From Akkermansia sp. (GTDB taxonomy: Bacteria > Verrucomicrobiota > Verrucomicrobiia > Verrucomicrobiales > Akkermansiaceae): a stretch of 64,000 nt of DNA. Made by a program: the position numbers and the translations under genes. Positions 7,587 to 48,319 of the stretch are shown one piece after another. The notes under the pieces are model-generated. The model was not told the DNA's origin and searched no databases. It saw only the letters and a list, made by a program, of their open reading frames with translations. The stretch covers positions 64,961 to 128,960 of the forward strand of contig JAFVIC010000003.1 in assembly GCA_017477935.1 (NCBI GenBank), in the 5' to 3' direction. Numbering within the stretch: position 1 is the first letter of the stretch; each line of letters starts with the position of its first letter.

Positions 7587-7593
7587 GGTTTAG

Positions 7594-9399: not shown

Positions 9400-9415
9400 A
9401 AAATCTGCACTAGAG

Positions 9416-9452: not shown

Positions 9453-9475
9453 AAATGAAGTTCTACGAGCTGTTA

Positions 9476-12304
<2,829 letters not shown>

Positions 12305-12409
12305 AGAATGGTATGAAGTACGAAGGTGAAAAAGCAGCAAAGCCTTGCAGGGCTCGAGCCGGGAGAATACCCCTACTCTGCGCCACATGCAAGGCTTTGT
12401 GGTGATTTC

Positions 12410-12793: not shown

Positions 12794-12815
12794 AGTTTGT
12801 ATATAGTGTCAGGGG

Positions 12816-29461: not shown

Positions 29462-29480
29462 CTGTTGACAAACTCAAAAT

Positions 29481-30371: not shown

Positions 30372-30382
30372 AATTAGATTGA

Positions 30383-32203
30383 TTAAATGTTTTTCATTGC
30401 CTCAGTCAAAGCATTATTATCCTTTTCATCTCGTACCGCGATACGGATGAAATTGCGCCCCTTCATGGCATTCTTTCCACTGCAATCTTTAATGAGGATA
30501 TCATGCTTCTCAAGAAGTGTCTCAGTAAGCTGGCGAGAGGTATAAGGCGGCAGCACTTCACAGAGGAAATAATTCGCCTGACTGGGCAAAACACGGAGGA
30601 AAGGAACGGCTGAGAGTTCATTCATAAAACGCCTGCGCTCATTCATAAACTGAACACAAGCCTGCTGATAATTTTTCTCATACTTGCCGAAAATCTGCAT
30701 GTAGAACTCACCCAGAGAATTGATATTCCATATAGCAACATCTTTCTTGAGCCAACTGATAAATTGCTCATCACCGCTTGCCATGATACCGAGTCTCAGT
30801 CCGGGTACACCGTAGGACTTAGAGATACTCTTAACCACTACAAGGTGGGGATAGCTCTCAAGCACTGAGTTGGTCAAAAGTGTGTTATTCGGTGTACCTT
30901 CGGAGAAATCAACAAAAGACTCATCAATGATAAGCTTAATTCCCTTCTTACTGCTCCATGCGCACAGGCGCAACACATCTGCCCTGGGTATAAAATTGCC
31001 GCTGGGATTATCAGGGTTAACCACCAACAGAGTGCTGATATCCTTATCTTCAAAATACTCCATCAGCATATCTGCCGTATAGGCAAAATCATGCTCCACA
31101 GTTTCAAAACAGACCAATCGATCTTTGCTGAGTCTGTTCGGGTATTCCTCGAAGGTTGGCAACACCACGCCCAGCTTACCCTCGAGAGACTCCATAAGCC
31201 CCTTGATAAGTTCAGCCGCACCATTACCCACACATACATAATTGTGCTTAATGCCGAAATATTTGCCGGCAAGCAGGCTATTAACTCTCATACCGGAGGG
31301 ATAATTGCACACCAAGCGATCAAAATTAGCCTTCAGCTCCGACATCAAGCGAGAATTCGGGAAATAGGGATTAACCAGATAGCAGAAGTCCAGAATGCGG
31401 GGATAACGCCAATAGCCACCATAGCGGCCTTCCATTTTTTTGAGTTTCTCTTCCGGTTTGCAGAACATAGATTCCGCAATATCAAGATCCTGAACATCGT
31501 CAATCTCATACCATGCTTCACCGCTCAAACGCAAAGCCTTGATTTCCGGTTTATCCAGCAGTGCGATAACACGCAATACCTGTTCATAATATTCGTTATT
31601 ACCCAGAGCTTTGCTATATGCTGCAAGGAACGGTACATAGTGAGAAGTTGAGAACTCTTTGCTGAACTTATAGATGTTGACCGTTTTGTAATAATTCTCT
31701 GTGGCCTCGTGTGAGAATTTGCTGCCGGGAATAAAGCTCTTGATATTATCCTCGTAGTCTAAGGTAACGACGGTACCATCCATCCAGCTCTCAAACTTGT
31801 CCACCAGAGCCAAACTGGGATAAGGATTCTGAACAATACGCTCAATCACAGAATCTTCCATAATCAAGTCCGATTCAAACAAGAGGGTATCTTCCCGCAT
31901 CAGATAATCCTTTGCAAGATAGAGAGAGTAAATATTATTTGTCGTGGCGTAGATAGGATTGTCAACATACTCAATGGCGCACTTTATGCCCAGAGTATCC
32001 ACATACTCTCTGAGTTTGCGGCCTTCATAACCGGTAACAATAACTATACGGGAAAGGGCTTCCGGTGCTTTCACCTTCTCCAATTGCCTGAGCAAGCGTT
32101 CAATGAGCGTCACCCCGTTGACCTTGACCATACATTTGGTATTATTCTGGGTGAGATCGCCAAGGCGCTTTCCCATACCAGCGGCTAAAATAATGGCTTG
32201 CAT
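30383..32203 (-). CDS. Fusion: LicC-like nucleotidyl(cytidylyl)transferase + class I/II PLP enzyme (CobD/HisC-like)
   Basis: N-terminal QAIILAAGMGKRLG..T...KCM, NNIYSL, WYEIDD.QDL. C-terminal GNGAAELI, NPDNPSG, IIDESF, PLP-lysine KSISKSYGVPGLRLG, SQANY. Confidence 0.88.
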   Translation of the reverse strand: MQAIILAAGMGKRLGDLTQNNTKCMVKVNGVTLIERLLRQLEKVKAPEALSRIVIVTGYEGRKLREYVDTLGIKCAIEYVDNPIYATTNNIYSLYLAKDYLMREDTLLFESDLIMEDSVIERIVQNPYPSLALVDKFESWMDGTVVTLDYEDNIKSFIPGSKFSHEATENYYKTVNIYKFSKEFSTSHYVPFLAAYSKALGNNEYYEQVLRVIALLDKPEIKALRLSGEAWYEIDDVQDLDIAESMFCKPEEKLKKMEGRYGGYWRYPRILDFCYLVNPYFPNSRLMSELKANFDRLVCNYPSGMRVNSLLAGKYFGIKHNYVCVGNGAAELIKGLMESLEGKLGVVLPTFEEYPNRLSKDRLVCFETVEHDFAYTADMLMEYFEDKDISTLLVVNPDNPSGNFIPRADVLRLCAWSSKKGIKLIIDESFVDFSEGTPNNTLLTNSVLESYPHLVVVKSISKSYGVPGLRLGIMASGDEQFISWLKKDVAIWNINSLGEFYMQIFGKYEKNYQQACVQFMNERRRFMNELSAVPFLRVLPSQANYFLCEVLPPYTSRQLTETLLEKHDILIKDCSGKNAMKGRNFIRIAVRDEKDNNALTEAMKNI

Positions 32204-32217
32204 AATAACTGATAAAA

Positions 32218-33477
32218 TTAAGGGTTAAGCAAATCTGTGATAATATTCTGAACGGGTGACTGATTGTTGGGGCAGAGGTAACTCTGTAAGAAAGCTGCTC
32301 TTTTTTCAGCCAGAGGATCTTCTTCGGCCAAAACCAGCTGAATGAATTTCTCGACATCCTCAGAGGTCTGCCCTTTCTGATAACACTCCAAAGCCTGCTT
32401 TGTTGACTCGTTAAACTCAGGCCTGCTATCATCACGCTCCATGTAAAGACAGGGCTTATCCATAAGAAGGTATTCCAGAATAAACGATCCACAATCATGA
32501 ATCATGGCATCAGAACGGCCGAATAATTCAGCATAGTCGCCATCAACAAGAGAGGTATTGGAACCTTCTACCCATGCCTGATAATATGCATCTGTTCGCT
32601 CTTGCCCCCATTCCTCGTCTTTGTAAAGAGAGCGTTTCAGTATGGGATGAGGCTTAAACACCAGCTCCACCTGCTCAGCATACTTCTGGGCAATCTTCAA
32701 CATATCATCAGCAATCAGCAAGAAGGTAGAAACATTAAGAGCTCGCCTCTCCATATTTCTCACGGTCCAATGCGGAGCCCATATTATTCGCTTACGCCCC
32801 TCAGTTCGTTCAACCTTCGAATTGAGAAGCCAATCAGCCATAGGCAACCCGGTCACTCTCGTGTTGCGGGCTTTGTTCTTCATATACTTACGGGCCTCCT
32901 GTTGTATATAGGCAGATTCTACGTAGTAACGATAGAAATATTTTAATTTCCAACCTCCATATACAAGGTTTGTTGCCATATTGCTGAACCCGTATGGAAC
33001 AAAAATCGGCAAAATTCCCTTCAATTCATATATATCGAAAGGAATCACGTGGTCATAAGGTTTTACTACGAACAGGAAATCCGGAACAAATTGCTGCCTA
33101 AGCTCTTGCAGAGATGCAGCTTCATAATACAGAAAATTATGCTTGCGGACGTATTCTTTACAAGCATTGCGAATCTCTTGCCGAACTTCATCATTCGCCA
33201 CGCGAGGCTCATCAGTAAGCCAAAAAGCAGGGATAAAGCGTTCGTCTGCTTCCATAGCTTTAAACAAAGGCTCATTCTTCCAGAACGGCAGCTCATAAAG
33301 CAAAAATGCCACACGGAGAGGACGCTTATGCTGATGCAGTTCACGCACTTTTTTCAGGGCAATTCGCCGCTGGCAAGCAGCAACCCAGCAAAGTCTCACT
33401 CCACGCATCACACTGTAGGCCAGGTCACGTACATACTTGGTCAAAACATTTTTACCCATTTTGTCGTAAATATTCAT
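32218..33477 (-). CDS. CDP-glycerol glycerophosphotransferase (TagB/TagF-like) family protein
   Basis: RVTG.P..D, IIWAPHWT, FKPHPIL, SDAMIHDCGSFILEYL..DKP.LY. Confidence 0.8.
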   Translation of the reverse strand: MNIYDKMGKNVLTKYVRDLAYSVMRGVRLCWVAACQRRIALKKVRELHQHKRPLRVAFLLYELPFWKNEPLFKAMEADERFIPAFWLTDEPRVANDEVRQEIRNACKEYVRKHNFLYYEAASLQELRQQFVPDFLFVVKPYDHVIPFDIYELKGILPIFVPYGFSNMATNLVYGGWKLKYFYRYYVESAYIQQEARKYMKNKARNTRVTGLPMADWLLNSKVERTEGRKRIIWAPHWTVRNMERRALNVSTFLLIADDMLKIAQKYAEQVELVFKPHPILKRSLYKDEEWGQERTDAYYQAWVEGSNTSLVDGDYAELFGRSDAMIHDCGSFILEYLLMDKPCLYMERDDSRPEFNESTKQALECYQKGQTSEDVEKFIQLVLAEEDPLAEKRAAFLQSYLCPNNQSPVQNIITDLLNP

Positions 33478-33829
33478 TTTCTTTGTTTTGTACTGTTACT
33501 AAACCCGATTTAGAATCAACTTTGTAATGAAGGTGCTGCGGCTAAACGTTGCTACCTGAAGGAGAGAACATTCTCACAAAGCATAAACGCCACGCACATT
33601 ATACCAGAAAGGCTTATTCTTTCAAGCAATTTTCCCGTTCATTCAAAGATTTGCTATTCGCAACACTAAACGCCACCCGCTCAGTTCCACCCTGAGTAGA
33701 AATGAAAGCAGTAAGGTAAACAAAAATAATATTCATAATCGAAGAGGCCCGTTAATTAAATACGATGTATTTTCGGACTGCTATATTTCTTTTTCAGAAA
33801 ATTAAGTGCCTGTTTACGGTCCTTGCCTG

Positions 33830-34305
33830 TAGATATTTCACTATGGGATGCGAATACGAGATCAGGAAAAAGCAGGGGATAACTTTCGCCCTACAAAGCA
33901 ATCATCGTTGGCATAAATAAAATGCTCTACCAAATTGGGAATCTTATGCAAGCAGCATTCCAATGCCTCTGAATTAAAGCAAGGACGTGCAGATTCCAGC
34001 GGGATTTCCGTGTGAACGACAATGGTAATTTTTTCGTGCGTGTAATACCATTTCGGCACCTGTTTATTGGTGATAATATAGATGTGGTGAATCCAGAGCA
34101 TGTACATAGCCAAGCTTCTGAGGCAAAGTCGTAAGTTCAGGCAGTCTGCTGCAGTATAACTCCGAACCGCGTTTCCTCTCTGGCCCTCACTACCGAAAAA
34201 AACGTACGCCGTACTCAGGTTCCCTAGAGCCATTAGAGCCCCTAAGCATTTTGCGATATCTTGCTCAGAACCAGAGTAACCGTTAAACTCGATACAAATT
34301 GACAC
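33830..34305 (-). pseudogene. Truncated/degenerate duplicate of the Stealth gene (CR2 only)
   Basis: WIHHIYIITNKQVPKW..HEKITIV.H.EI..ESARPCFNS.ALECCLHKIPNL.EHFIYANDD.FVGRK is nearly identical to part of 34636..35571. CR1 is absent and there is an early stop at 33862. Confidence 0.8.
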
Positions 34306-34635
34306 CTAGCCGACTCAGGGCATCAAGGATGAAGGCTCAGACAGAGCTTGTAACTGTTTTTTCGTTCTTCTATATCACGGCCAGAATTGAGAAAAAGCAA
34401 TTGGATAATTGAAGTTGTTTTATGTCGTCTACTGCTGCATCTGTGACAGATAATAGATATTATGCCCCGTTTCCTGTAGACTGCTGATCACGCAGTGTGT
34501 TACACGTTCAATGCCTCCTCTCGAGGGAATAATTACTGTAATATAAACAAAAAAATATTCATAATATCAGCCTAATGGCTAATAAAAGACATTGCAGTAT
34601 TGCGAACTCTATAGCTATGTTGTTTTCTATCAGGC

Positions 34636-35571
34636 CTAACGTTCAAAGGGGGATTTTACTGGAAAGCGAGATTCAAGAAAGCATCGTGTGCGGGCGCGGT
34701 CTTCGTCTGTCGCAACTTCGCAATCGTTGATACAAAATAAGGCCGGATGATTAGGGGCAAGGTGTTTCATGGGACTATGGTTGGATTCAACCATAGAGTC
34801 AAGATATGCCATGTGAATTTTTTTCATGACGCGTTGCAAAAATGTCCTGCTGACATCTTTCAAAACAGCTTGTTTTTTGACCAGAGCATACATAAGAAAC
34901 AAAATTCGCTGCAAGCATGATTCATTGCGGAATGGTTGATGGATAGTGTGATGGAACCAATCTGGAAATTCCTTTTCACAACCAGCTAGGATCGTTTTAG
35001 TGTATGCGTCCATATTATGGTGGGAACTATAGTTACCAAAGGTTATACCAAAGCGTTGTTTAATAGCCTCATGTGCGGTTTTTATCGTATGCCAATATAG
35101 CCCACCCCCTATTATGGATTTTTTCCATCTGACTATGGGTTTTCCCATCCGTTCGTAAAAGAAATTGGGTGTTATTTTTCTTCCTACAAACATGTCATCG
35201 TTGGCATAGATAAAATGCTCTGCCAGATTGGGGATCTTATGCAAGCAGCACTCTAATGCCTGAGAATTAAAGCAGGGACGTGCAGATTCGGGAAGGATTT
35301 CGGAGTGGTCGACAATGGTAATTTTTTCGTGCGGGCGGAACCATTTTGGTATCTGGTTATTTGTAACAATATAAATGTGGTGAATCCATGGCATATGCAT
35401 GACTACGCTTCGGAGACTGTACTTCAGCTCATCAATTTGAACATAGCGGCAATCCGGGTTTTCTTTCATAGCGGCGTTGCATTGTCTCATTCGTTCACGC
35501 CTTTGTCGGGCGAAATTCTCATCATTGCCATCGCACCACAGATAGACAAGATCTATATCATAATCTTTCAT
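34636..35571 (-). CDS. Stealth-family hexose-1-phosphate transferase
   Basis: CR1 IDLVYLWCDG, CR2 ELKYSLRSV..MPWIHHIYIVT..Q.P.W...FNS.ALE..LHKIP.L.EHFIYANDD, CR3 HHNMDAY.K, CR4 FCIND. Confidence 0.92.
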   Translation of the reverse strand: MKDYDIDLVYLWCDGNDENFARQRRERMRQCNAAMKENPDCRYVQIDELKYSLRSVVMHMPWIHHIYIVTNNQIPKWFRPHEKITIVDHSEILPESARPCFNSQALECCLHKIPNLAEHFIYANDDMFVGRKITPNFFYERMGKPIVRWKKSIIGGGLYWHTIKTAHEAIKQRFGITFGNYSSHHNMDAYTKTILAGCEKEFPDWFHHTIHQPFRNESCLQRILFLMYALVKKQAVLKDVSRTFLQRVMKKIHMAYLDSMVESNHSPMKHLAPNHPALFCINDCEVATDEDRARTRCFLESRFPVKSPFER

Positions 35572-35761
35572 AATTTAGGGATACCAGTAAAAGTTAATAT
35601 GCTACCGTCCGATTTTTTCTCAGGTTGAGGAAAAGTCTAAACGAAAAAGTGTTATGAGAGCTTTGAATATGAATGCCGAAGACGGAAATATCGACTTATT
35701 TCAAGATGAGCAACTTCTCACTGCAGATATTCGTTATGGACGTGTTTGTGAAAGAGCGGAA

Positions 35762-36751
35762 TTATATAACCACCAGCGAGTCTTCGACATTTTTGCGGGG
35801 AGAAATGGCTAACGGGAAATTGTGCTCAGCGAGTGTCCCGCAGACCATAAGAGCTATGATGGATTCTGAGTCAGGGATGCCGATGAGTTTATGAATTTTC
35901 CTGAGACTTCCCGCTGTGCATGGCATACCCAGAATACAATGAGCTACTTTATTGTAATGCAAAGCATAAGAGAGGTTCATAAGGTAAATACCTCCGTTTA
36001 CATAGAGGGACATCCCTTCTAAAGCGTAGAAACTACTCCTGTCGCATGTGATGACAAGTGCCTTATCCGCAAACTGGCCGAACCCGCGGTTTCCACCTTG
36101 TAATTGCAGTAGTTGTGCCCGTTTTTCATTATCTGCCACACAATATACTTTCCAAGGCTGCCTGTTACAGGCGGAAGGGGAGTTATTTGCAAGTTCGACC
36201 GCAGCTTGAATTTGCTTCATAGAAACGGGAGTTTTGCCGAAGTTTCGTACGCTATGCCGAGATGCTGAGAACTTTGCAAAGTCTGCGTTCAAGTGACGCC
36301 AATATTCTTCAGGGGAGGATTCAATTTGTGCCGAGCTTGTAATATTTGCTGTAGCTAAAATGGATTCAAGAGCGGACTCTATGCTGGATTCAAGAGGGAA
36401 ATGTTCTCTTTGATGCAGGTGGTAATATTCTGACAGTACAGCAAGTGCATGGTGGCATACGTCGCTGTATTCACCATTGTTGAGTTTGTGCACGAGCTGC
36501 AGTTGCTTAATAGTCTGCAACACCATAGGTTGACCAAATCCGAGCCTACGTTCAGGCATTGTCAGCCCTTTTTCCAATACATGATACATGGCTGTGAGTC
36601 TTGCTTCTTCCCCTTTGCAAGTGCAGCAAGTATCCATACAGTATTGTGCGTGCTTTTTGCAGAAATAGGCAAAGTATTTTATGATTGACAATTTTTGTCG
36701 CAACTTGACATAGTAGCGGAAGAGTGCGGTTTTTTTGAGTATAGCTTTCAT
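35762..36751 (-). CDS. Nitroreductase-family protein
   Basis: HVLEKGL N-terminal region, SRHSVRNF, A.NSPSACNRQPW.VY. Confidence 0.85.
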   Translation of the reverse strand: MKAILKKTALFRYYVKLRQKLSIIKYFAYFCKKHAQYCMDTCCTCKGEEARLTAMYHVLEKGLTMPERRLGFGQPMVLQTIKQLQLVHKLNNGEYSDVCHHALAVLSEYYHLHQREHFPLESSIESALESILATANITSSAQIESSPEEYWRHLNADFAKFSASRHSVRNFGKTPVSMKQIQAAVELANNSPSACNRQPWKVYCVADNEKRAQLLQLQGGNRGFGQFADKALVITCDRSSFYALEGMSLYVNGGIYLMNLSYALHYNKVAHCILGMPCTAGSLRKIHKLIGIPDSESIIALMVCGTLAEHNFPLAISPRKNVEDSLVVI

Positions 36752-37917
36752 TTTGCGGATAAAGGGAAAGGGTTATCAGTCTGGTTTAATATATTGAAAA
36801 GGATTTGCATAGAATGCTGTTTGCTGGTTTCCAGCTGTTTCATATCATGGGTATCTGGAGATACGATTTTTACTAATCCATCAGGGGTGATAATTTCTTC
36901 TAAATTGCTGGGGCAAATGCCGAAGTATTTGAAAAGGGAATCAAAACGGCTATTTCTATGAGATGCTTTTAGCTTGTTTTCCTGCAATACATGCAAGGGT
37001 TTTCGGAACAACAGCGAGAATGCGGAACCATGAAAGGACGTCGTCACCACTGCTCTGGCATGACGTATAAGCCACACAAACTCGGCAGGCCCCACTCCCG
37101 ACAATGCCTGGGAGCTATCATCACTGACAGTCCCGACAATCGGCGGCTGAATAGAATATACAGCACAGCCTTCAGCCTTGGCTAAATCTCTAGCATACGG
37201 CATAAGCTCCATCTTACCACCAACACTATACACCAGTATGTAATCGGAGGAACGCAAGGGATAAGGACGTTCAAAACTTTTCCACTCCTCATCGGATAAC
37301 AATAGTACCGGATCACAAACAACCCCAACCGGACGATTTAACAGCGCCTCCAACACTTCCGCTGCTACATGTTCTCGCACGGTTATATTAGTAAAACCAC
37401 TCAATTTTTCACGATAGATTTTGCTAACTTCATCTCCCAGTACAGATACTCCAATACTGGCAGCATACGAGTTTTTCTTGCTTGCCGATTTTACAAAATC
37501 AAGAAGATAAGAACAGTCTCCGGCTTCCCCCGCTACTGCAACTATATCAGGATTCCATATCTGATCACTACCGGCAACGAACAAATCGTACAATTCATTG
37601 GAACATTGTAACTCTGACGGGGAAGTATATACCTGAGAAGATATCTTCATCACCTCCCTGCGAAACGCCGCAAAAGCACGATATGTTTTACCATCTCGAA
37701 GATAACGATGATGCATCAAAGCACAAAATCCCTTTAAATTTTTCGCCCGGGGAATATACGAATGATAAAATCTCTCAGCTTTATCAGGGCGATAATCGAG
37801 GATTTCAGCTTCTGCTCCCAACTTATTAATGACATTAGTCAGCGCATGAGCCTGAAGAACAGCTCCGTAATTATTAGCTCTGTGAAAAGTAAGAACGGCT
37901 ACTTTTTTCATAAGCAC
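36748..37917 (-). CDS. Polysaccharide pyruvyl transferase family protein
   Basis: LTFHRANNYGAVLQA.AL, VAGSDQIWN, SYAASIG, ITVRE, VCDPVLLL, TTSFHG.AFS. Confidence 0.92.
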   Translation of the reverse strand: MLMKKVAVLTFHRANNYGAVLQAHALTNVINKLGAEAEILDYRPDKAERFYHSYIPRAKNLKGFCALMHHRYLRDGKTYRAFAAFRREVMKISSQVYTSPSELQCSNELYDLFVAGSDQIWNPDIVAVAGEAGDCSYLLDFVKSASKKNSYAASIGVSVLGDEVSKIYREKLSGFTNITVREHVAAEVLEALLNRPVGVVCDPVLLLSDEEWKSFERPYPLRSSDYILVYSVGGKMELMPYARDLAKAEGCAVYSIQPPIVGTVSDDSSQALSGVGPAEFVWLIRHARAVVTTSFHGSAFSLLFRKPLHVLQENKLKASHRNSRFDSLFKYFGICPSNLEEIITPDGLVKIVSPDTHDMKQLETSKQHSMQILFNILNQTDNPFPLSAK

Positions 37918-37939
37918 AACATATTAATGTTCTTTAAAT

Positions 37940-38875
37940 TCATTCAGCAGAAATCAGGCGCCCGTAATATGTCAGCAAACCGTCTTCCGTATATTCCTTG
38001 AACGGTATTTTATACGACAATTTAAACCAACGGCACTCATCGCACATCTTACGAAACTTTTCTTCATCGCAGGGTTCATTAGCAATCTTTTCAAACTCCA
38101 GAATATGTGGGGCCAATTCCACACCGGCATCTACTCCACATTGAGTATCTTCATTGTGATCATAGGCTGCCAATAATAAATAATCCATAATAAGATAATC
38201 TACCGCGTAATCCATCGTTTTCCAATACTCCTGTTTCATTTCTGCTGCACAACAAAACCAAGGAGAACGAGCAACAGCTCCCATCAAAAAACATTTCCAC
38301 AGACATCGATTGACTCCGACATAATTAAAATCAAAGACAGTACGCACAGAAAAGTATGGCTTATTGAAAATTGATTCCGGTATAGCCCTATGAACATATA
38401 TAGTACTATCTATCCATATTCCACCTCGTTCAGCCAGAAGAGACATACGCATGACATCAGAAAAGTGAATATAACTCATTTTACCTTTGCGCAATTTTTC
38501 ATAAATACACTCAGGCAATTGAACATATTGAGCGATATTCCCCATATGAAGCAGCACCACCTCTCGCCCCTTCGGAGCCATTAACTTCAAGCGTTCATAA
38601 CAAAGTTTAACGATAGGAGGCATATTCTCCTCCCCCTGAAGCCAACACACCCATATCGGCCCGGAATTCTCGTATCCAGGACTTACAGCAGACTTATATT
38701 TTTCTAGAATTTTCGAAAAACGCCGCTCAAAGAAAGCATGATTCACACTTCGCATAGCCTTTCGTCGCAGAATTGGATCCTTGTACTTAAGATGAGTAAA
38801 AATACATGGGATGATATACTCCCAATCCATATCCCTGAAAAAATAAAATATTTTTTTTATCCTTGCTCCAAACAT
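37940..38875 (-). CDS. Capsular polysaccharide synthesis protein (Caps_synth, DXD glycosyltransferase)
   Basis: IWVCWLQGEENMP.IV..C, HFSDVMR.SLLAERGGIWIDST, DYLIMDY, KLSYK. Confidence 0.9.
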   Translation of the reverse strand: MFGARIKKIFYFFRDMDWEYIIPCIFTHLKYKDPILRRKAMRSVNHAFFERRFSKILEKYKSAVSPGYENSGPIWVCWLQGEENMPPIVKLCYERLKLMAPKGREVVLLHMGNIAQYVQLPECIYEKLRKGKMSYIHFSDVMRMSLLAERGGIWIDSTIYVHRAIPESIFNKPYFSVRTVFDFNYVGVNRCLWKCFLMGAVARSPWFCCAAEMKQEYWKTMDYAVDYLIMDYLLLAAYDHNEDTQCGVDAGVELAPHILEFEKIANEPCDEEKFRKMCDECRWFKLSYKIPFKEYTEDGLLTYYGRLISAE

Positions 38876-39648: not shown

Positions 39649-39863
39649 GATGTTCTGACTGTTTGTGATTGTGAATGATACGTGCCCGACAGCGGGCGCA
39701 CCGGCGCCCCTCGTCACGCCTATATCCTAGCTTTTTTGCCAAGACACGTCAAGCAGAATTTAGTTCAGTATTAAAAAATAAATTCTTTTCCAATGTTAAA
39801 TCAAGCGGGCAAGGCACCACATAAGTGCCCTGCCCGCCTGTTAGTTACAATGTTTGGAGGTTA

Positions 39864-41714
39864 TCACTCTGCGCTTTCAGCTGCAGCGGCCTTCTCAGCC
39901 TCGAGTTTCTGGCGGAGTTTCTCAGGCAGCTTGACCTGAATGTGAATGTCACGCAGCTGGTTAGGCTCAGCCGGCGCGGGGGATTCGCTCATGAGGTCGG
40001 CACCGCGATTGTTCTTGGGGAAGGCAATCACCTCGCGGATAGAGTCGCACTGCCCGATAAGCATGACCACGCGGTCGAGACCGAGTGCCAGACCACCGTG
40101 GGGAGGTGCGCCGAAGGAGAAGGCGGCCAGCAGGTGGCCGAACTGCTCTTCGATGGTGGCGTCATCCAGCCCGAGGGCTCGGAAAGTAGCATCCTGCAGC
40201 TCTTTCTCATGAATACGAATAGAACCACCGCCCAGCTCATTGCCGTTGAAGATGACATCGTATGCCTCGGCGCAGATGTCGGTGGAAATCTCGCCCTTGA
40301 GCACCTTCTCCACATCCTCCGGTACGGGACGGGTGAAGGGGTGGTGAATGGCGCAGTAGCGCTGTTCCTCAGCATCCCACCCGAAGAGAGGGAAGCGATT
40401 GACCCAGAAGAGGTCGATGTCGGTGTTGCCCTTGAGCAGCTCCATGAACTCGCCGCAGGCCAGGCGCACGCGGCCGAGAATGGTGCAGCTCTGCTCCCAC
40501 TCGCCGGCGGCAAAGAAGATGCAGTCGCCGCTCTCGATGTTCAGGCGCTCAACGAGGGCATCTATCTCAGCTTGGGAGAGACGCTTGGTGATGGGGCTCT
40601 TCCACTCCTTGGTGTTGTTGACGTCGCGCACTTTAATGTAGGCCAGGCCCTTGGCGCCGGCCTCAATAGCGGTCTGGGTGAGGGAGTCCACCTGGCCGAC
40701 GGAGGGGTTGAAGCCCTTGGCATTGATGGCTTTCACCACGCCACCGTTGGCAATGGCGCCGGAGAACACACGGAATTCGCTGTTAGCAAAGATGTCGGAG
40801 CAGTCGGTAATCTTCATTTCGAAGCGGCGCTCAGGCTTGTCGGAACCGTACTGATCCATAGCATCCTTCCAGGTCATGCGGGGGAAGGGAGTGACGATAT
40901 CGCGGCCGACGGATTCTTTGAACACGCGCTTAAGCATGGCTTCAATCCAGGCGTAAATATCCTCAGGGGTAATGAACGAAGCCTCGATATCAATCTGAGT
41001 GAACTCGGGCTGACGGTCGGCGCGCAGGTCTTCGTCGCGGAAGCAACGAGCCACCTGGAAATACTTCTCCATACCGGCGACCATGAGCAGCTGCTTGTAC
41101 TGCTGGGGAGCCTGGGGCAGAGCGTAGAAGGTGCCGGGGTTCAGGCGGCTGGGCACCAGGAAGTCGCGGGCACCCTCGGGGGTACTCTTGGAAAGGATGG
41201 GGGTTTCAATCTCGAGGAATCCCTGTTCGTCGAGATAGTCGCGCATGGTCTTGGTGATGCGGTGGCGCAAAATCATGTTGCGCTGCATGGGGGTGCGGCG
41301 CAGGTCGAGGAAACGGTACTTCAGGCGGATATCCTCGTTGGCGATGTTGCGGTCGAGCTGGAAGGGGAGAACGGCGGCGCGGTTGAGCACGGTCATGGAG
41401 GCGGCATCCACCTCAATCTCACCGGTGGCGAGGTCGGGGTTGGTAGCGTCCACCTCATCGGTCTTCAGACGGGCAACCACCTTGCCGGTGACCTGAATAA
41501 CGGATTCCACACGCAGATTCTCAGCATCATTGGCCAGCGCAGCATTATTCTCGGGGTGGAAAACCACCTGGGTTTTGCCGGCGCGGTCACGGAGGTCGAT
41601 GAAAATCACACCGCCGTGGTCGCGAACTGTATCCACCCAGCCTACAAGCGTAACCTGCTTGTCGACATCAGAAAGGCGGAGCTCATCGCACGTATGGGTA
41701 CGGTAACTGTTCAT
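39864..41714 (-). CDS. aspS: Aspartate-tRNA ligase (RDHGG motif suggests the non-discriminating type)
   Basis: YRTHTC, RDHGGVIFIDLRD, RLKYRFLDLRR, EGARDFLVPSR, LPQAPQQYKQLLM, CFRDEDLRADRQPEFTQID, GAPPHGG.A.GLDR. Confidence 0.98.
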   Translation of the reverse strand: MNSYRTHTCDELRLSDVDKQVTLVGWVDTVRDHGGVIFIDLRDRAGKTQVVFHPENNAALANDAENLRVESVIQVTGKVVARLKTDEVDATNPDLATGEIEVDAASMTVLNRAAVLPFQLDRNIANEDIRLKYRFLDLRRTPMQRNMILRHRITKTMRDYLDEQGFLEIETPILSKSTPEGARDFLVPSRLNPGTFYALPQAPQQYKQLLMVAGMEKYFQVARCFRDEDLRADRQPEFTQIDIEASFITPEDIYAWIEAMLKRVFKESVGRDIVTPFPRMTWKDAMDQYGSDKPERRFEMKITDCSDIFANSEFRVFSGAIANGGVVKAINAKGFNPSVGQVDSLTQTAIEAGAKGLAYIKVRDVNNTKEWKSPITKRLSQAEIDALVERLNIESGDCIFFAAGEWEQSCTILGRVRLACGEFMELLKGNTDIDLFWVNRFPLFGWDAEEQRYCAIHHPFTRPVPEDVEKVLKGEISTDICAEAYDVIFNGNELGGGSIRIHEKELQDATFRALGLDDATIEEQFGHLLAAFSFGAPPHGGLALGLDRVVMLIGQCDSIREVIAFPKNNRGADLMSESPAPAEPNQLRDIHIQVKLPEKLRQKLEAEKAAAAESAE

Positions 41715-41913
41715 GGTAATGATGCTTGATAGAAATTACGGTCGGCTGCGCACACATGCGAGCCGAAGCGGCCAAGATTCTACTCTCTGCCACCTGATTG
41801 TCAAGACAAATTTGGCTATTCAGGCGGCACTGCCGCAAAAAATGAACAGGTGCCCTGCCAGGGGGAAGAACCGATAGCGGAAGCCGACCAAAGGAGCGGG
41901 TTACGTTTTGGCC

Positions 41914-43530
41914 TTAACTGCGCGCCGCCTTGCGCAGAAGACGGGCACATTCCTCGTGTCCATACTTCCCGGCCACGTGCAGTGCTGTCTCGCCATAGGC
42001 ATTCAGAGCGTCCGGGGTAATACCCGGGGCTTTCAGCAGCAGGCGCACACTGTCAGCGTGGTTACGCATGGCAGCGTAGCCCAGGGGAGTCCAACCATTC
42101 GGGGTGAAGCGATTCACATTTGCGCCGGCTTCTATCAAGGCACTCAGGCAATCAGGATTCGGCGCCCGCAGAGCCACATGCAGCGGTGTATAACCTTGCC
42201 TGTCAGTCAAATCAACCTGAGCCCCGTAATTGAGCAGCACCCGCACACAATCAGCATGCCCCGTGAGCACAGCATACATCAGGGGGTAGTTACCACTCTC
42301 ATCCGGGCTGTTGACATCCGCACCGGCGGCCAAAACCGCGATAAGTTCATTGGCATCCCCCTTCTTCGCAGCCTGACACAAATCAGCGCCGTCAGTCGGG
42401 GGCGGAGTGACAGTCCCCTGCCCCGGGGTACGGTATTGCCCCAGCAGTACAGCACCTATCACGACTGACTCTGCCACTTTCCCCCAACAGCGTGTTTTAA
42501 GAAAGTCACCGTCTCGGTTCAACGGCACCGCCTGTACCAGCTGCTCAGCCACATAATCAAACAAAGTCACGCCACCTGTCAGCAGCAGCACCTCAGGTGA
42601 GTGAGGGGGCGCCGAGGCACTGTAGAGTTCCTTGAGGTAACCTGCTACCGTAGTAACCTCATTCGCCAGCAACCGCACATATTCATCGCGAAGCACCGTT
42701 GCGATGTACATGAACCCGTCGTTCAGACAGCTGAACAGCCCGTCAGCCTCACCCTTGGCAGAAAGAGCGTGCTTAGCCTTGCGCACCCCCTGCATCACTC
42801 CGCCATGCGGCAACGCGTCAACCTGCCCACGGTCAATCCCGGCAGATTCGAGCAATTTATCCATCACCAGTTTGCGAATCTCCGCATCCACCTTATCACC
42901 GGCGCATTCAGAATTACCGAGCCCCCGCTGCAGGGCAATATCCCCGTTTTCACAGCGTGTTACGCAGGCAATATCAGCCGAGCCGGCGCCCCAGTCCAGC
43001 ACCAGAGCACTGCGTTGGAACGCTTTTTCCGGCACGCATGAGCAATAGGCTGCGGCAACAGCCTCGGGGGCAGATACCAGCACAATTTCCGGGAATCCGG
43101 CGCGACCGGCAGCTGACAGCAATTCCGCCCGCTGCTCCGATGTAAAACCAAGCGGGCATGTCAACACGGTTTTACCGATAGTACACCCCTGCATGGAAGG
43201 CGCAGCCTTTACCCGGTCGTGCACACAGGTCAGAAAGCTTGCCACAATATCAACAGCGGGCTTCTGCCCCAAAACGGCCCGACCGCTCCCCAGCATATGC
43301 AGAAAACCGGGCAGATAGGGGAGAGAATCATGCCGTGCTACATCATCAGCCTCGTCACCGAACAGCAGAGTACCATCATCCATCAACGCCGCTGTAGTAG
43401 GCAGTTCCATTGCAGAGCGGCCGATAGCAAGCAGTTCCGGCTGTCCATCCGTTTTTTCACGGGCAACCCGGGTCGTGGCAGTGCCTAAATCAATAGCAAT
43501 CGTTATCACTTGTTCCTCCATGGCGGGCAA
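41914..43530 (-). CDS. Hsp70/DnaK-like ATPase domain fused to C-terminal ankyrin repeats
   Basis: IAIDLGTATT, LPT....LFGDEA, VLTCP..FTSEQR.EL..AA..AG, PEAVAAAY, VLDWGAGSADI, LLLTGG. No substrate-binding domain; instead ~4-5 ankyrin repeats (GNYPL.YA, GYTPLHVA, GWTPLGYA, GETALHVA). Confidence 0.85.
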   Translation of the reverse strand: MPAMEEQVITIAIDLGTATTRVAREKTDGQPELLAIGRSAMELPTTAALMDDGTLLFGDEADDVARHDSLPYLPGFLHMLGSGRAVLGQKPAVDIVASFLTCVHDRVKAAPSMQGCTIGKTVLTCPLGFTSEQRAELLSAAGRAGFPEIVLVSAPEAVAAAYCSCVPEKAFQRSALVLDWGAGSADIACVTRCENGDIALQRGLGNSECAGDKVDAEIRKLVMDKLLESAGIDRGQVDALPHGGVMQGVRKAKHALSAKGEADGLFSCLNDGFMYIATVLRDEYVRLLANEVTTVAGYLKELYSASAPPHSPEVLLLTGGVTLFDYVAEQLVQAVPLNRDGDFLKTRCWGKVAESVVIGAVLLGQYRTPGQGTVTPPPTDGADLCQAAKKGDANELIAVLAAGADVNSPDESGNYPLMYAVLTGHADCVRVLLNYGAQVDLTDRQGYTPLHVALRAPNPDCLSALIEAGANVNRFTPNGWTPLGYAAMRNHADSVRLLLKAPGITPDALNAYGETALHVAGKYGHEECARLLRKAARS

Positions 43531-43547
43531 TTCGGTTTAATCTATTC

Positions 43548-45395
43548 TCACAGATCCGCGAACAGGGTGCTGCATTCCGCGTGACCATTTTCAGCAGCAA
43601 GTTCAGCAGCCGTCTGCCCCAGTATATCCTGCACCGTAGTATCAATACCCGGCACAGCCAGCAATAGCCTGACCACCTCGGCATGACCGGCAGCCGCAGC
43701 AACATGCAGCGGGGTTGAGCCGTCAAAATCCCAGAGCACATTCACATTCACGGCAGGCGATTTGAGCAGGAGTTTCAGCAGCGCAACATTTCCATCTTCC
43801 GCGGCTGTGTGCAACAGAGAATAGCCGCTTTCATTGCACACATTGACATCAGCCCCGTGCGCAACGAGACTTTCAGCGCAATCGAGGTGGCCGGCCACTA
43901 CGGCAGCCTGCAGCGGAGTCCAGCCATAATCATTGCGCGACTCCAGCTCAGCGCCCCCGTTCAGCAGGCACGGCAGCAACGCCGCAGCTCCCGTGCCGGC
44001 AACAATGTGCAGGGGAGTATTGCCGACGGAATCCGCCGCTGCTACATCTACACCGGGCAAAGCCAGTGCAGAACTCAGAGCAGCGGCATCCTGCGCATGC
44101 AGCGCTTCCCACAAAGCGGATTGAGCATCGACGGGGTTCTCGACGGGGTTCTCGACGGGCTTCTCGGCAGGCTTCTCGACGGGTTTCTCGACGGGTTTCT
44201 CGACGGGTTTCTCGGCAGGCTTCTCGGCAGGCTTCTCGACGGGCTTCTCGGCAGGTTTCTCGACGGGCTGTACCTTCGGTTGAGGCGCAGGTTGCTGAGC
44301 CTGCTGCGACATTGACAAGGCACCATTCTGTTTCAGGTAGAGGGCTGCGCCTTCAACGGCATCCGTTGGCTTGGTGCGGTAGTAAACGGGCTTACCCAGG
44401 GTTTCAGCCAGTATTTTCTGCGCACCGGGCAGCAACGCAAGGTCACCGGTAATAAGCACGACCTCAGGCTTACCATACCTGAGAGCACTCATGTAGAGCG
44501 ACTTCACGGCACTAGCCATGCGCTCCAGATAGGGCACCAGAAGGCGTGCATAGTCATCCCCGGGAATCTGCACCTCGACGGAATGCCCCGCTATCAAAAA
44601 ACTCCGTACATTCAATTGCTGAGTTGAGAGAGCTCGTTGAGCATCGCGCACCGGGCACTGTTCCCGCACCTGTCGCAACAACGCAGGCCAGGCGACCCTG
44701 CCGACAGGCCGCATTCGTGCCACCTTTGCCATAATATAGTTGGCCAAATCTTCATATATCTCTTCACCGCCGAGTTCGACCTGCCCGCCCACGGCTCGGG
44801 GGTTAATCTTGCCACCGGCGGCCTCTGCAACCATGTGGGCATACTCCACACGGGCCGGAGACCAGTTAACCAACAGGGCATTCTTTTCGTACAGCGGGGC
44901 AAAACCACGGCTGCGCAACCTGTCAGCCCACACGCAATATATGGCCCCGGTATCAGTCACCAGCTCCACAGTACGAGCACCGGCCTTCAGCGCAGCCTCT
45001 CTCAGCTCCGATTGCTGATTCGGAGTGCGGGAAACAGGGCAGCACAACACTACATCAACAGCCCCCTCCGCTGCACAACCGCAACGTTCTTTGACCAAGG
45101 GGAACACATACGCCAGGAACTTCCCGAGCAAATCTGCTGCGGTATACCTTCCCATGAGTAGTTTAGCTGAACTGCCGAGTTTGCGCACAAAGGCGCGACA
45201 ATACCCGGCAGGATGTACCTCTGCCATCTTCTCAGCAGCCTCACCGAAGTGAAGCACGTCATCAGGGGTCAGGCATACAGCCGTCGGAATGCCGTATTGG
45301 TATTTACCGAGCCTGACAAGCTCCGATTTTTCACCGGCAATGACGGCGGCATAAGTCTCTGCAGCTCCCGGATCGATGACGAGTTTGATTGACAT
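43548..45395 (-). CDS. Degenerate Hsp70-like domain + PxEK linker + ankyrin repeats (paralog of the adjacent gene)
   Basis: LVIDPG, IPTAV...LHFGEAA, VVLCCP...[25 protein letters not shown]. Ankyrins GNTPLH, GWTPLQ, GYSLLH, GSTPLH. Confidence 0.8.
44127..44267 (-). repeat. 12-bp coding tandem repeat encoding P(V/A)E(K/N) x11 + PVD
   Basis: Read directly in DNA (TTCTCGACGGG(T/C) / TTCTCGGCAGG(T/C) on the plus strand) and in the translation. Confidence 0.95.
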
Positions 45396-45535
45396 AACTA
45401 CTGTATATAATAATTGACTGAGAACGTGCGGAACAACACGAGGGTGCACACCTGTATCGACCCACTCGTGAATATATACCACGCCCGGCGGGGGGATGTC
45501 AATCCCATTCCCGAGTCAATCAGATATTCAACAAC

Positions 45536-45568
45536 AAAACTGTGCCGACAAGCGGCACAGTTTTGAAA
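45536..45568 (-). terminator. Hairpin after CASDH
   Basis: AAAACTGTGCCG-ACAAG-CGGCACAGTTTT. Confidence 0.7.
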
Positions 45569-45591
45569 ATAACGGGCATGTAAAAACCAAC

Positions 45592-46821
45592 TTAATCCGC
45601 CACTCTGAGGGCGCGGGCCTGGTCTTCCGTCAACTCAATGCACTGCCAGGGCAAGCCGTACTGATTAAGGGCCTCCATGAAGGGATCGGGGTCGTTCTGC
45701 TCCATATTGAACACACCGGCACCGCTCCAGGTACCGCTCATAATCATGCGGCCACCGATAGCTGCAGGCACGCCGGTGGTGTAGGAGATAGCCTGGGAGC
45801 CCACCTCGCGGAAGCATTCCTCATGGTCACAGATGTTGTAGATGTAGACAGCCTTGTACTTGCCGTCTTTCTTACCCTGAATCACGCAGCCAATGCAGGT
45901 GCGGCCATGGGTGGTCTTGCCCAGATCGCCGGGGTTGGGCAACACGGCTTTGAGGAACTGCAGCGGCACGATTTCCACGCCATTGTACATCACGGGGTCG
46001 ATTCGGGTCATGCCGACATTCTTCAGCACGGTGAGGTGGTTAATGTAGTTGGGAGAGAAGCTCATCCAGAACTGAGCACGCTTGATGGTGGGTATGTGTT
46101 TGACAAGCGACTCCATCTCCTCATGGTACATTCGGTAGATTTCGTAGGTACCCACACCATCAGGGCAGGTGAAGGGCTGGTGCATGCTCATGGCACCGGT
46201 CTCCTGAAAATCACCATTCTCCCAGTGACGGCAGGGAGCGGAAACCTCGCGTATATTGATTTCGGGGTTAAAATTGGTAGCGAAGGCCTGACCGTGGTCG
46301 CCACCGTTCACATCAATGATGTCGAGGTACTCTATTTCGTCGAAATGGTGCTTCAAGGCCCAGGCGGTGTAAACGTTGGTCACACCAGGGTCGAAACCGG
46401 AACCGAGCAGAGCGAAAAGGCCGGCCTTCTGAAAACGCTCCTGGTAAGCCCACTGCCAGCTGTACTCGAACTTGGCCACATCGCGGGGCTCATAGTTGGC
46501 GGTATCGAGGTAGTTCACGCCGGCCTCAAGACAGGCATCCATAAGGGGAAGATCCTGGTAAGGCAGAGCGACATTGAGCACAAGGTCCGGCTGCACCGAT
46601 TTGATGAGAGCCACCGTAGCGGCCACATCATCGGCATCCACCGCATGGGTGGTAATCTGCACACCGCTGCGCGCCAGCACATCGGCCGCAATCGCATCGC
46701 ACTTGCTCTTGGTACGCGAAGCCAGATGGATGTTCTTGTAAACATCTGCCATCTGGGCACACTTGTGAGCCACCACATGGCCCACACCACCAGCTCCGAT
46801 TATGAGTACAGTGTTGTTCAT
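45592..46821 (-). CDS. Saccharopine dehydrogenase family / carboxy(nor)spermidine dehydrogenase
   Basis: VLIIGAGGVG.VVAHKC, NVALPYQDL..MDACL, YLDTANYEP, FEYSWQWAY, GSGFDPGVT, FATNFNPEINIRE, SQAISYTTGVPA. Confidence 0.88.
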   Translation of the reverse strand: MNNTVLIIGAGGVGHVVAHKCAQMADVYKNIHLASRTKSKCDAIAADVLARSGVQITTHAVDADDVAATVALIKSVQPDLVLNVALPYQDLPLMDACLEAGVNYLDTANYEPRDVAKFEYSWQWAYQERFQKAGLFALLGSGFDPGVTNVYTAWALKHHFDEIEYLDIIDVNGGDHGQAFATNFNPEINIREVSAPCRHWENGDFQETGAMSMHQPFTCPDGVGTYEIYRMYHEEMESLVKHIPTIKRAQFWMSFSPNYINHLTVLKNVGMTRIDPVMYNGVEIVPLQFLKAVLPNPGDLGKTTHGRTCIGCVIQGKKDGKYKAVYIYNICDHEECFREVGSQAISYTTGVPAAIGGRMIMSGTWSGAGVFNMEQNDPDPFMEALNQYGLPWQCIELTEDQARALRVAD

Positions 46822-46954
46822 TGCGCCGCAAGAGTGCACTATAGCGAACGCAAAGTCAAGCGAAAATGCAAATGGTGCCAAATAAGTTCAGGTCATACAC
46901 ACAGGCAGGGCGACCTGAAAGAATCGCCCTGCCTTAGTATTCTGCTCAGCCGAC

Positions 46955-48319
46955 TCAGCGCAGGAAAATGCGCAGCAGCTTCTCTGCAAATGAGGTATAG
47001 GGATGGTAACGCATGGGCAAATCAAGCCAGTTTGCCTTAGTGAGCACTGATTTATAGTGCGTAAAGGTATCGAAGCCGGCCTTGCCGTGGTAGGAGCCCA
47101 TACCGCTGTCGCCCACACCGCCGAAGGGCAGCCCGTGCACAGCGAGATGAATGATGGTATCGTTCACGCACCCGCCGCCGAAGGAAAGGTTGTTGACGAA
47201 ACGGCGCTCATTTGCCGAGCTGGTGGTGAACAGGTAAGAGGCCAGCGGGCGCGGGCGGCTGAGCACGAACTGCTCTACCTCCTCCCACTTATCCCAGGTC
47301 ATCATGGGCAGGATGGGTCCGAAAATTTCCTCCTGCATGCAGGGGGAATCGGGCGTAACGTCATCCAGCAGCGTAGGCTCAATGCGGAGAGAGGCAGAGT
47401 CACCCTTGCCGCCGATAATGGCGGTAGCTCCGCCCATAAGCCCCATGAGGCGATTGAAGTGCTTTTCGTTGACGATGTGGGTAAATGTCTCGTCCTTCAA
47501 CGGCTCAGCGCCCAACATACGCTCTACCTCTGCACGATAGGCCGCAATGAACTCCTGCTTGCGGCTGCTGTGAATAAAGAGGTAATCGGGAGCCACACAG
47601 GTCTGACCGGCGTTGAGAATCTTGCCGAAAGCGATACGGCGGGCCGCAACGCGGATGTTGGCCGTCTCGTCCACGATACAGGGGCTCTTACCGCCCAGTT
47701 CGAGGGTCAGCGGGGTGAGATTCTCCGCGGCGGCGCGCATGACCACATGACCGACCACGGGGCTACCGGTGAAGAAGATGTAGTCAAACTTCTCCTTGAG
47801 CAGCGCGCCGATTTCGTTGCGCCCGCCCAACACGGTGGTCACATATTCCGGCGGAAATATACTGCCGAGCATCTCGGCAATCACGGCAGAAGTGGCAGGC
47901 GACATGGAAGAGGGCTTCACCACGGCGCAGTTACCGGCTGCCAATGCAGCAGCCAGCGGGTCGAGACAGAGCAGGATGGGGTAATTCCACGGGCTCATGA
48001 TGAGGGTGACGCCGTAAGGCTCAGGCTGCACCCGGCAGGTAGAGGGGAACTGAGCAAGCGGGGCCATCACCTTTTTCGGTCGGCTCCAACGGCGCAGGTG
48101 GCTGATATTTTCGCTCAGTCCGGCAAGCACCATACCGATTTCGGTCATGTAGGTCTCCGTACCGCATTTACCGAGGTCAGCCTGCAGCGCCTCAGCGATA
48201 CGGGGTTCCCACTCAACGATGGTCTTGCGGAGCTTCTTGAGCGCAGCGAGACGGTATTTCACATCGCGCGTGGCATGGGTCAGGAAAAAGCGGCGCTGTG
48301 TTTCAACAATGTCGTGCAT
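46955..48319 (-). CDS. NAD(P)-dependent aldehyde dehydrogenase (ALDH3-like)
   Basis: EPYGV.LI.SPWNYP, FFTGS, TLELGGKSP, catalytic GQTCVAPDY, EEIFGPILP, LPFGGVG.SGMG.YHG. Confidence 0.95.
   Translation of the reverse strand: MHDIVETQRRFFLTHATRDVKYRLAALKKLRKTIVEWEPRIAEALQADLGKCGTETYMTEIGMVLAGLSENISHLRRWSRPKKVMAPLAQFPSTCRVQPEPYGVTLIMSPWNYPILLCLDPLAAALAAGNCAVVKPSSMSPATSAVIAEMLGSIFPPEYVTTVLGGRNEIGALLKEKFDYIFFTGSPVVGHVVMRAAAENLTPLTLELGGKSPCIVDETANIRVAARRIAFGKILNAGQTCVAPDYLFIHSSRKQEFIAAYRAEVERMLGAEPLKDETFTHIVNEKHFNRLMGLMGGATAIIGGKGDSASLRIEPTLLDDVTPDSPCMQEEIFGPILPMMTWDKWEEVEQFVLSRPRPLASYLFTTSSANERRFVNNLSFGGGCVNDTIIHLAVHGLPFGGVGDSGMGSYHGKAGFDTFTHYKSVLTKANWLDLPMRYHPYTSFAEKLLRIFLR

Follow-up and report, generated by a model that had tools for sequence, protein, structure and literature searches.

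What do two neighbouring genes do that each join an Hsp70-like nucleotide-binding domain (NBD) to ankyrin repeats, in the place where Hsp70 carries its substrate-binding domain (SBD)? The question is raised by a locus of Akkermansia, a prominent gut symbiont, within 64,000 nt of DNA from Akkermansia sp. (GenBank assembly GCA_017477935.1, contig JAFVIC010000003.1, positions 64,961 to 128,960), the whole stretch that was analysed and that is here called the window. The two genes, here named A and B, are read on the minus strand directly upstream of aspS (coordinates are collected in Table 1). A preliminary description of the window, made from its letters alone, had presented them as a candidate for an undescribed, ATP-gated recognition system, possibly pairing an active ATPase with a pseudo-ATPase, that could sense foreign proteins of phage or host or act as a client-specific chaperone. 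Our analysis leads to another placement: A and B are securely identified as a derived, fast-evolving pair of paralogues with eroded ATP sites, within a family of Hsp70-like NBD-repeat proteins that is associated with dynamin-like proteins (DLPs).

A predicted Hsp70-type NBD is joined to ankyrin repeats in both proteins

The architecture that had first been proposed, an Hsp70 NBD followed by ankyrin repeats and lacking the SBD, was supported by Pfam as well as by AlphaFold models and their comparison by Foldseek. In Pfam, HSP70 matched A at 7.7e-7 and B at 1.6e-14, and Ank_2 matched them at 9e-29 and 1e-33, with Ank, Ank_2, Ank_3, Ank_4 and Ank_5 all above the gathering cut-offs in both proteins. 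Each protein contains a partial HSP70 match and four to five ankyrin repeats; the HSP70 match stops at residue 331 in B and at residue 381 in A (numbered over the whole open reading frame, ORF), and ankyrin repeats follow thereafter. The AlphaFold models have a mean confidence (pLDDT) of 86.6 for B and 75.4 for A, and the ankyrin regions are modelled as helix-turn-helix repeats in both. By Foldseek, both N-terminal domains match DnaK/Hsp70 NBD structures (E 1e-18 to 1e-20, target-normalised TM-score 0.7-0.8): the NBD of A matches DnaK NBDs at an E-value of about 2e-18 and a target-normalised TM-score of 0.76-0.79, the NBD of B matches DnaK at 1.5e-20 in a profile search of the PDB, and the matches include Ssz1/RAC and the Hsp110:Hsc70 complex. 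The models agree in giving A and B an actin-like, two-lobed NBD fold of Hsp70 type, as expected from the earlier proposal that the N-terminal domains fold as actin-like ATPases. A filament former like MreB or ParM, to which weak Pfam MreB matches could point, was rejected, as HSP70 scores higher and only Hsp70 NBDs appear as structural neighbours.

The NBD fold is that of canonical Hsp70 (DnaK, HscA), of Hsp110 and of Ssz1. With the NCBIfam models for DnaK/HscA, however, A and B score 16-61 bits against cut-offs of 620-1019 bits, and therefore neither is a canonical Hsp70. Unlike canonical Hsp70, both lack the SBD, the conserved interdomain linker and the residues equivalent to K70 and E171, and their C-terminus consists of ankyrin repeats. 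No signal peptide or recognisable secretion signal was found in A or B, and the beta-1 strand of the NBD begins at residue 4, so that both proteins are most likely cytoplasmic.

In A, the two domains are separated by a proline-rich linker encoded by a tandem repeat. Residues 359-422 are disordered in the AlphaFold model (pLDDT <50), and the linker ranges from 22 to 66 aa among strains whose NBDs are 96-99% identical, a variation that looks like slipped-strand length polymorphism of the tether between NBD and ankyrin repeats. The A proteins of the window and of its closest relative, L001, also have one ankyrin-like repeat fewer, seen as a 36-aa gap with respect to the lineages L002, L003 and L006.

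A and B are derived members of a large NBD-repeat family encoded next to dynamin-like proteins

The family came into view only when a B-type NBD profile was searched exhaustively with HMMER: word-indexed searches with full-length B were swamped by ankyrin-only matches, and NBD-only queries returned almost only orthologues and DnaK. The profile retrieved 15,533 representatives at E<1e-3, 3,785 at E<1e-10 and 159 at E<1e-30, with E-values down to 1e-71 outside the A and B orthologues, and A-type proteins ranked only about 113th, behind many non-orthologous proteins. In all family representatives, the NBD is N-terminal and the C-terminus is variable, the total length ranging from 218 to 1,326 aa. 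Ankyrin repeats were found in 20 of the 60 nearest relatives, and because of this share the NBD-ankyrin architecture is common in the family; Sel1 repeats were found in 16, and TPR, WD40, the ribosomal L12 C-terminal domain and DnaJ_C also occur. The subfamily is marked by FGDDA[DE]D and a Trp in phosphate-2, of which A and B share FG[DE]xA[DE] and the Trp. Informative cluster names are few ('ankyrin repeat domain-containing protein', 'Hsp70 family protein', 'actin-like ATPase'), and the family is also present in free-living and environmental metagenomes.

The neighbourhood of these genes points to dynamin-like GTPases, a pair of DLP genes typically standing immediately upstream of the family member. 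Among the best 19 loci of a metagenome scan, dynamin-like genes abut the NBD gene in 14, and the upstream sequence is missing in two of the other five. Elsewhere in the assembly of the sister genome L001, two Dynamin_N GTPases are followed by four tandem NBD genes (locus L017), with the architectures NBD-ANK-L12_C, NBD-ANK, NBD only and NBD-Sel1, the NBD-only protein being 441 aa long. In the lineage L018, the pair itself directly follows such an array, in the contiguous order DLP-DLP-NBD-NBD-A-B-aspS, and AspRS is 98% identical to that of the window. Rather than an isolated system, the pair is thus a derived branch of a large family encoded next to DLP pairs. A and B share with the DLP-associated proteins the NBD subfamily, with its acidic K70 position of FGDDA[DE]D type and DWGGG as diagnostic motif, and a C-terminal solenoid module. 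They differ from them in having their own promoter and no DLP gene in the window, in the loss of nucleotide-site residues that show no variation in the DLP-linked members, and in being a fixed paralogous pair with much faster evolution.

Parts of this picture had been noted before. Jilly et al. (2018) described a 'chaperone group' of cyanobacterial bacterial dynamin-like proteins with a DnaK-domain gene downstream (PMC5827413), and Kaur, Burroughs, Iyer and Aravind (2020) described HSP70 without its peptide-binding domain in DO-GTPase (GAP1-N2) conflict systems (PMC7159879), where, as in A and B, an NBD lacking the SBD occurs amid GTPases and repeat proteins. A relative that is 30% identical is flanked by two Pfam DO-GTPase genes (locus L011); that work describes neither the ankyrin fusion nor the paralogous pair, and no DO-GTPase, GAP1, FNIII, DnaJ or GrpE gene was found near A and B in any Akkermansia locus recovered. 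Hydrolysis-poor Hsp70-like domains are discussed in another defence context in the CoCoNuT study (PMC11090510). In the literature that was searched, we found no account of an NBD-ankyrin pair and no functional study of clusters of DLP and Hsp70-like genes, and the DLP-associated NBD-repeat family, labelled 'Hsp70 family protein' in databases, is functionally uncharacterised.

Several relatives deserve mention in their own right. In L017, positions 3624-6986 encode a 1,120-aa protein in which the NBD and about eight ankyrin repeats are followed by the C-terminal domain of ribosomal L7/L12 (Pfam 1.7e-13), a domain that 3 of the 60 nearest relatives carry. On the ribosome, GTPases are recruited by the L12 C-terminal domain, and this protein hints that C-terminal modules of the family may contact the neighbouring GTPases. 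In L011, a Verrucomicrobiota metagenome-assembled genome (MAG), positions 6374-13236 hold two dynamin-like GTPases, an NBD-only family member and the two DO-GTPase genes, all co-oriented, in an array that resembles a dynamin pair merged with a DO-GTPase conflict system. In L018, a 50-aa hydrophobic ORF (9183-9335), predicted to span the membrane, lies between the DLP/NBD array and the promoter of A. In L010, another Akkermansia lineage, positions 9989-12877 encode a family member of 962 aa with the NBD, Sel1 repeats, hydrophobic segments and ankyrin-like repeats; no dynamin-like gene lies upstream, and the gene adjoins a Ser/Thr kinase and a PEP-CTERM protein. As judged from the L010 protein, some family members may be membrane-anchored.

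The ATP site is eroded in A and in B

The five classical Hsp70 motif positions were read from an alignment of 161 NBDs, with residues numbered by alignment to DnaK. The family consensus is IGIDFGTTKTL in phosphate-1, FGDDADD at the K70 position (Asp/Glu), TEPEAAG in the E171 region, DWGGGTLD in phosphate-2 and VGG in the adenosine motif. An acidic residue at the position of the catalytic Lys (DnaK K70) is a family-wide feature, and the DLP-linked NBDs are near-invariant at the nucleotide-contact motifs (DFGTTKT, TEPEAAG, DWGGGTLD, VGG). In the window, A reads IDPGAAETY in phosphate-1, Glu at K70, VTDTGA with Asp at E171, NWSPARVE in phosphate-2 and GD in the adenosine motif, whereas B reads IDLGTATT, Asp at K70, SAPEA with Ala at E171, and DWGAGSAD, and keeps GG. 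A has lost all four nucleotide-contact motifs of the family; B has lost E171 and is altered in phosphate-1 and phosphate-2.

These data allowed us to revisit the motifs quoted in the preliminary description. All of them occur in the sequence, among them DLGT, PEA.A, DWGAGS.D and TGG in B and TGD in A, and the motif comparison confirms that the nucleotide site of A is thoroughly eroded. The Glu of 'PEA' cannot be taken for the catalytic residue, since it aligns to T173 of DnaK and not to E171. Nor is B near-intact: besides its Asp at K70 and Ala at E171, the phosphate-2 loop varies among B orthologues, with D, G or N at the first Asp position and D or E at the last. In the lineages L015 and L018, it is A that retains DFGTTSS (GTT) and part of the phosphate-2 loop, and B has GS in place of GG, so that motif loss in the two genes is a mosaic that differs by lineage. 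As erosion is lineage-specific in both genes, the division into an active and a pseudo-ATPase, which the first interpretation had suggested as possible, is not a conserved feature.

Judged by these motifs, A and B have both escaped the constraint under which the ATP site of their paralogues is kept. The A protein of the window cannot plausibly bind nucleotide; its B protein might do so, yet without both classical catalytic residues. The A and B lineages provide a natural series of progressively eroded Hsp70 NBDs for studying the evolution of pseudo-ATPases, and they raise a second question, that of the consequence of ATP-site decay in Hsp70-fold domains.

The pair is fixed upstream of aspS and evolves faster than its neighbours

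The relatives found in a scan of a genome collection are MAGs of uncultured Akkermansia sp. A and B are paralogous over their full length (28% identity, E 5e-42), and in a neighbour-joining tree of the 161 NBDs the A-types and B-types make up one clade of 15 members. In all eight distinct Akkermansia contexts recovered, the two genes lie in constant order directly upstream of aspS, and no singleton A or B was found among them; the pair had been expected to be co-conserved, and it is. The opposite flank is a saccharopine-dehydrogenase-like gene in seven contexts and the DLP/NBD array in L018. Both reading frames are intact in all eight lineages, and orthologue alignments reveal many residues that are invariant within the A-type and within the B-type.

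Across these lineages, four flanking housekeeping proteins remain 85-100% identical to those of the window (AspRS 95-99%), and the identities of A/B fall in parallel, to 90/85, 59/56, 43/44, 32/37 and 26/34%. With respect to L001, dS is similar for all six genes (0.11-0.25), and dN/dS is 0.17 for A, 0.35 for B and 0.01-0.03 for the four neighbouring genes; the nonsynonymous rate of A and B is 10-20 times that of the neighbours. Overall, dN/dS of A and B lies between 0.13 and 0.40, below 1. The fastest segment is lobe II of the B NBD (residues 181-360), with values of 0.4-0.67 in sliding windows. Positive selection was not detected, no window of 60 codons reaching a dN/dS of 1 (maximum 0.67), and adaptive evolution is therefore unproven. 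The ankyrin domain of B is the best-conserved part of the pair, with a mean pairwise identity of 49% compared with 38-40% for the other domains.

A and B share a conserved promoter

Orthologue alignment identifies ATG 45395 as the conserved start of A, within an ORF that extends over 43548-45482, and the N-terminus is kept among orthologues from MSI(K/T)L onward. For B, the catalogued protein P0001, which is 100% identical over 535 aa, begins at ATG 43521, and an alternative TTG start lies at 43530 (ORF 41914-43530). The spacer between the co-oriented genes is 26 bp with the ATG start and 17 bp with the TTG start, the latter being the gap that was originally reported.

The TTGACA/TATATA promoter proposed ahead of A was also found to hold. 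In an intergenic alignment of five lineages, TTGACA and TGGTATATA are invariant, the remaining intergenic region having diverged, and L018 has an identical promoter architecture ahead of its A gene. A simple consensus scan did not list this promoter, because position 6 of its second hexamer is A. Upstream, an intrinsic terminator separates the saccharopine-dehydrogenase-like gene from the A-B unit, and its hairpin is preserved in the other lineages of the alignment by compensatory changes. In a metatranscriptome assembly, one contig of 2,059 nt (41804-43862) spans B and the spacer and enters A at its 3' end, and further contigs cover the NBD of A. This contig across the junction fits co-transcription of A and B, DNA carry-over being possible.

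What A and B may do

The reading that we favour, and hold tentatively, makes A and B adaptor or scaffold subunits, without ATP cycling and tied to dynamin-like machinery. An old tandem duplication in the Akkermansia branch of the SBD-less Hsp70-like family would have given rise to the two genes. Their products would run no ATPase cycle and would serve as a structural adaptor, in which A and B probably associate as a heteromer through their NBDs. A hydrolysis-deficient Hsp70 homologue that partners another Hsp70-type NBD has precedent in the Hsp110 and Ssz1 pairs. Partner proteins would be bound by the two ankyrin arms, one of which hangs on a flexible tether that varies in length. Through the adaptor, these partners would be connected to the dynamin-like/NBD membrane machinery that other loci of the genome encode, or the adaptor would modulate that machinery. 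The fast yet constrained evolution of the pair points to a bound partner that is itself quick to change, for which a phage, envelope or host-facing component is a candidate.

A bolder version, which we consider unlikely though worth stating, is that two DLPs and several NBD-solenoid proteins constitute an unrecognised machine for membrane surveillance or trafficking. Hsp70-fold NBDs would there take the role of the P-loop NTPases of STAND proteins, or that which Hsc70 has in eukaryotic vesicle traffic, where it works with dynamin. Within this machine, A and B would have lost catalysis and, evolving fast, would confer specificity or act as decoys, their ankyrin arms recognising phage, envelope or host proteins, and the system would have expanded in Akkermansia, a bacterium of the PVC group.

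Several observations weigh against the adaptor reading. No DLP gene lies within the 64-kb window, and in L018 a terminator and a separate promoter of the conserved type stand between the DLP/NBD array and A, so that the coupling to DLPs would rest on homology and adjacency and not on a shared operon. One metatranscriptome contig also crosses the upstream terminator, contaminating DNA being possible. The dN/dS values below 1 throughout fit plain relaxed constraint as well as adaptive change. Finally, B of the window retains D-x-G-T, G-x-G-S-x-D and GG, which makes some nucleotide-dependent behaviour possible, and catalysis by another mechanism may be possible with the acidic residue that the family has in place of K70.

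Closest to the first interpretation is the possibility, to which we also assign a low probability, of an ATP-gated, STAND-analogous sensor in which B would be the active ATPase and A its regulatory pseudo-ATPase partner, and in which the ankyrin repeats would recognise phage or other foreign proteins; the pair would be an anti-phage or conflict module that may signal to DLPs. In the window lineage, A is indeed more eroded than B, and the fast evolution and the polymorphic linker would suit such a sensor; in other lineages, however, the 'active' and 'pseudo' roles swap or blur, B lacks the equivalents of K70 and E171, and the phosphate-2 Asp of B differs between orthologues. The fusion of an NTPase to a solenoid mirrors STAND sensors (NACHT or NB-ARC with LRR, WD40, TPR or ANK), which have the same logic of an N-terminal NTP module and C-terminal repeats and, like the NBD-repeat family, swap repeat types; A and B have an actin-like/Hsp70 fold in place of a P-loop and no effector domain, and the likeness is an analogy only. 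A link to conflict systems is suggested by the distant relative in L011, which has a DLP pair on one side and two DO-GTPases of a described system (PMC7159879) on the other, and by a weak resemblance of the DLPs to LeoBC and LeoA of Eleos. The NBD-linked DLPs match these PADLOC models at 1e-24 to 1e-7, a general dynamin similarity, and Eleos has no Hsp70-like component. In PADLOC, A and B themselves matched only in their ankyrin regions (PDC-M72A, Ankyrin, MzaA), with no match to the NBD. Moreover, the pair occupies a fixed slot of the core genome in every lineage seen, outside any variable defence island, and the ankyrin domain of B is the most conserved, not the most variable, part of the pair. 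The sensing of phage or foreign proteins thus received no positive evidence. A prophage origin or membership in a catalogued defence system was likewise rejected: in addition to the ankyrin-only PADLOC matches, PHROGs gave one weak family of unknown function, for the NBD of B only, and tblastn against phage genomes gave no match to A or B.

It appears improbable that the pair consists of eukaryote-like ankyrin proteins directed at the host, which would leave the cell, for instance within outer-membrane vesicles formed with the aid of DLPs, and bind host proteins. Neither protein has a secretion signal, the NBD starting at residue 4; an NBD of Hsp70 type has no obvious extracellular role; and the family also occurs in free-living and environmental metagenomes. 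On the other hand, ankyrin and Sel1 repeats are typical of host-associated bacteria, and the fast evolution would on this view come from adaptation to a variety of animal hosts. A comparative study of Akkermansia speculated that ankyrin proteins mediate host interaction (PMC10540074), and the LeoABC dynamins of enterotoxigenic Escherichia coli are, in the published account, linked to vesicle-associated toxin release (PMC4159319). One sequencing run with the locus is labelled goat gut metagenome; the other labels, being generic or coded, do not define a host range.

Ankyrin-based chaperones hold particular endogenous clients, and A and B could in principle be a client-specific chaperone or targeting factor, in which ankyrin repeats replace the SBD and the NBD provides nucleotide-regulated release. 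We regard this as quite improbable, given that catalytic residues are missing, that the NCBIfam DnaK/HscA scores are far under the cut-offs, that no J-domain or GrpE partner lies nearby in the window or the Akkermansia loci, and that the evolutionary rate is unusually high for a housekeeping chaperone. In its support, the NBD stands at the Hsp70 position and the binding module at the SBD position, DnaJ_C occurs in two family members, and the comparatively conserved ankyrin domain of B is what an endogenous client would lead one to expect. Finally, functionless duplicates decaying under relaxed selection, to which the dN/dS of 10-20 times that of neighbouring genes, the mosaic loss of active-site motifs, the deleted ankyrin repeat and the variable linker length might point, are very improbable and disfavoured, because frames are intact in all eight lineages despite identities down to 26-34%, dN/dS is 0.13-0.40 and well below 1, each type has many invariant residues, the lineages share the promoter and the locus occurs in the metatranscriptome assembly.

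All Akkermansia contexts recovered contain the pair, and its divergence is far more rapid than that of the surrounding housekeeping genes. The family placement and the DLP link turn an isolated oddity into a testable question on SBD-less Hsp70 folds beside membrane-remodelling GTPases. Should the family be a membrane-defence or trafficking module, this would provide an actin-fold counterpart to the P-loop-based sensors of bacteria; otherwise, the pair would be a lineage-specific adaptor of modest general interest.

Features of the locus and neighbouring genes

Table 1. Features of the A-B locus, in positions of the window
Feature	Positions	Strand	Description
Gene A (upstream)	43548-45395	minus	615 aa: pseudo-NBD, Pro-rich repeat linker, ankyrin repeats
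A NBD	44325-45395	minus	residues 1-357; predicted Hsp70-type fold, eroded nucleotide site
A linker tandem repeat	44128-44269	minus	12 bp, in frame, 11.8 copies (TRF); encodes P[AV]EK units
A ankyrin domain	43551-44135	minus	residues ~421-615; Pfam Ank families 1e-22 to 1e-29
Gene B (downstream)	41914-43521	minus	535 aa: Hsp70-like NBD and ankyrin repeats
B NBD	42424-43521	minus	residues 1-366; partly eroded
B ankyrin domain	41917-42393	minus	residues ~377-535; Pfam
A-B promoter	45473-45502	minus	-35 TTGACA (45502-45497), 18-nt spacer, extended -10 TGG-TATATA (TATATA at 45478-45473)
Intrinsic terminator of the upstream saccharopine-dehydrogenase-like gene	45531-45563	minus	hairpin and T-run, ACTGTGCCG-CTTG-TCGGCACAGTTTTGTTGTT
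Weak terminator-like hairpin after B	41845-41859	minus	hairpin and T-run; consensus scan only
Candidate aspS promoter	41804-41777	minus	TTGACA-16-TAGAAT; consensus scan only; 3' of the hairpin after B

Two long ORFs on the plus strand run antisense to aspS (39825-41729) and to the saccharopine-dehydrogenase-like gene (45496-47040). Their translations are rich in Gly, Ala and Val and of low complexity, and they are most likely artefacts of high GC content rather than genes. Downstream of aspS, a stretch of low GC content (about 43%; 27995-38875) occupies the slot that in related lineages holds capsule and polysaccharide genes (Caps_synth, Stealth, PS_pyruv_trans, Glyphos_transf and glycosyltransferases), the content of which differs between lineages. 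Read from the genes of these relatives, the stretch looks like a variable surface-polysaccharide locus adjoining the conserved slot of A and B.

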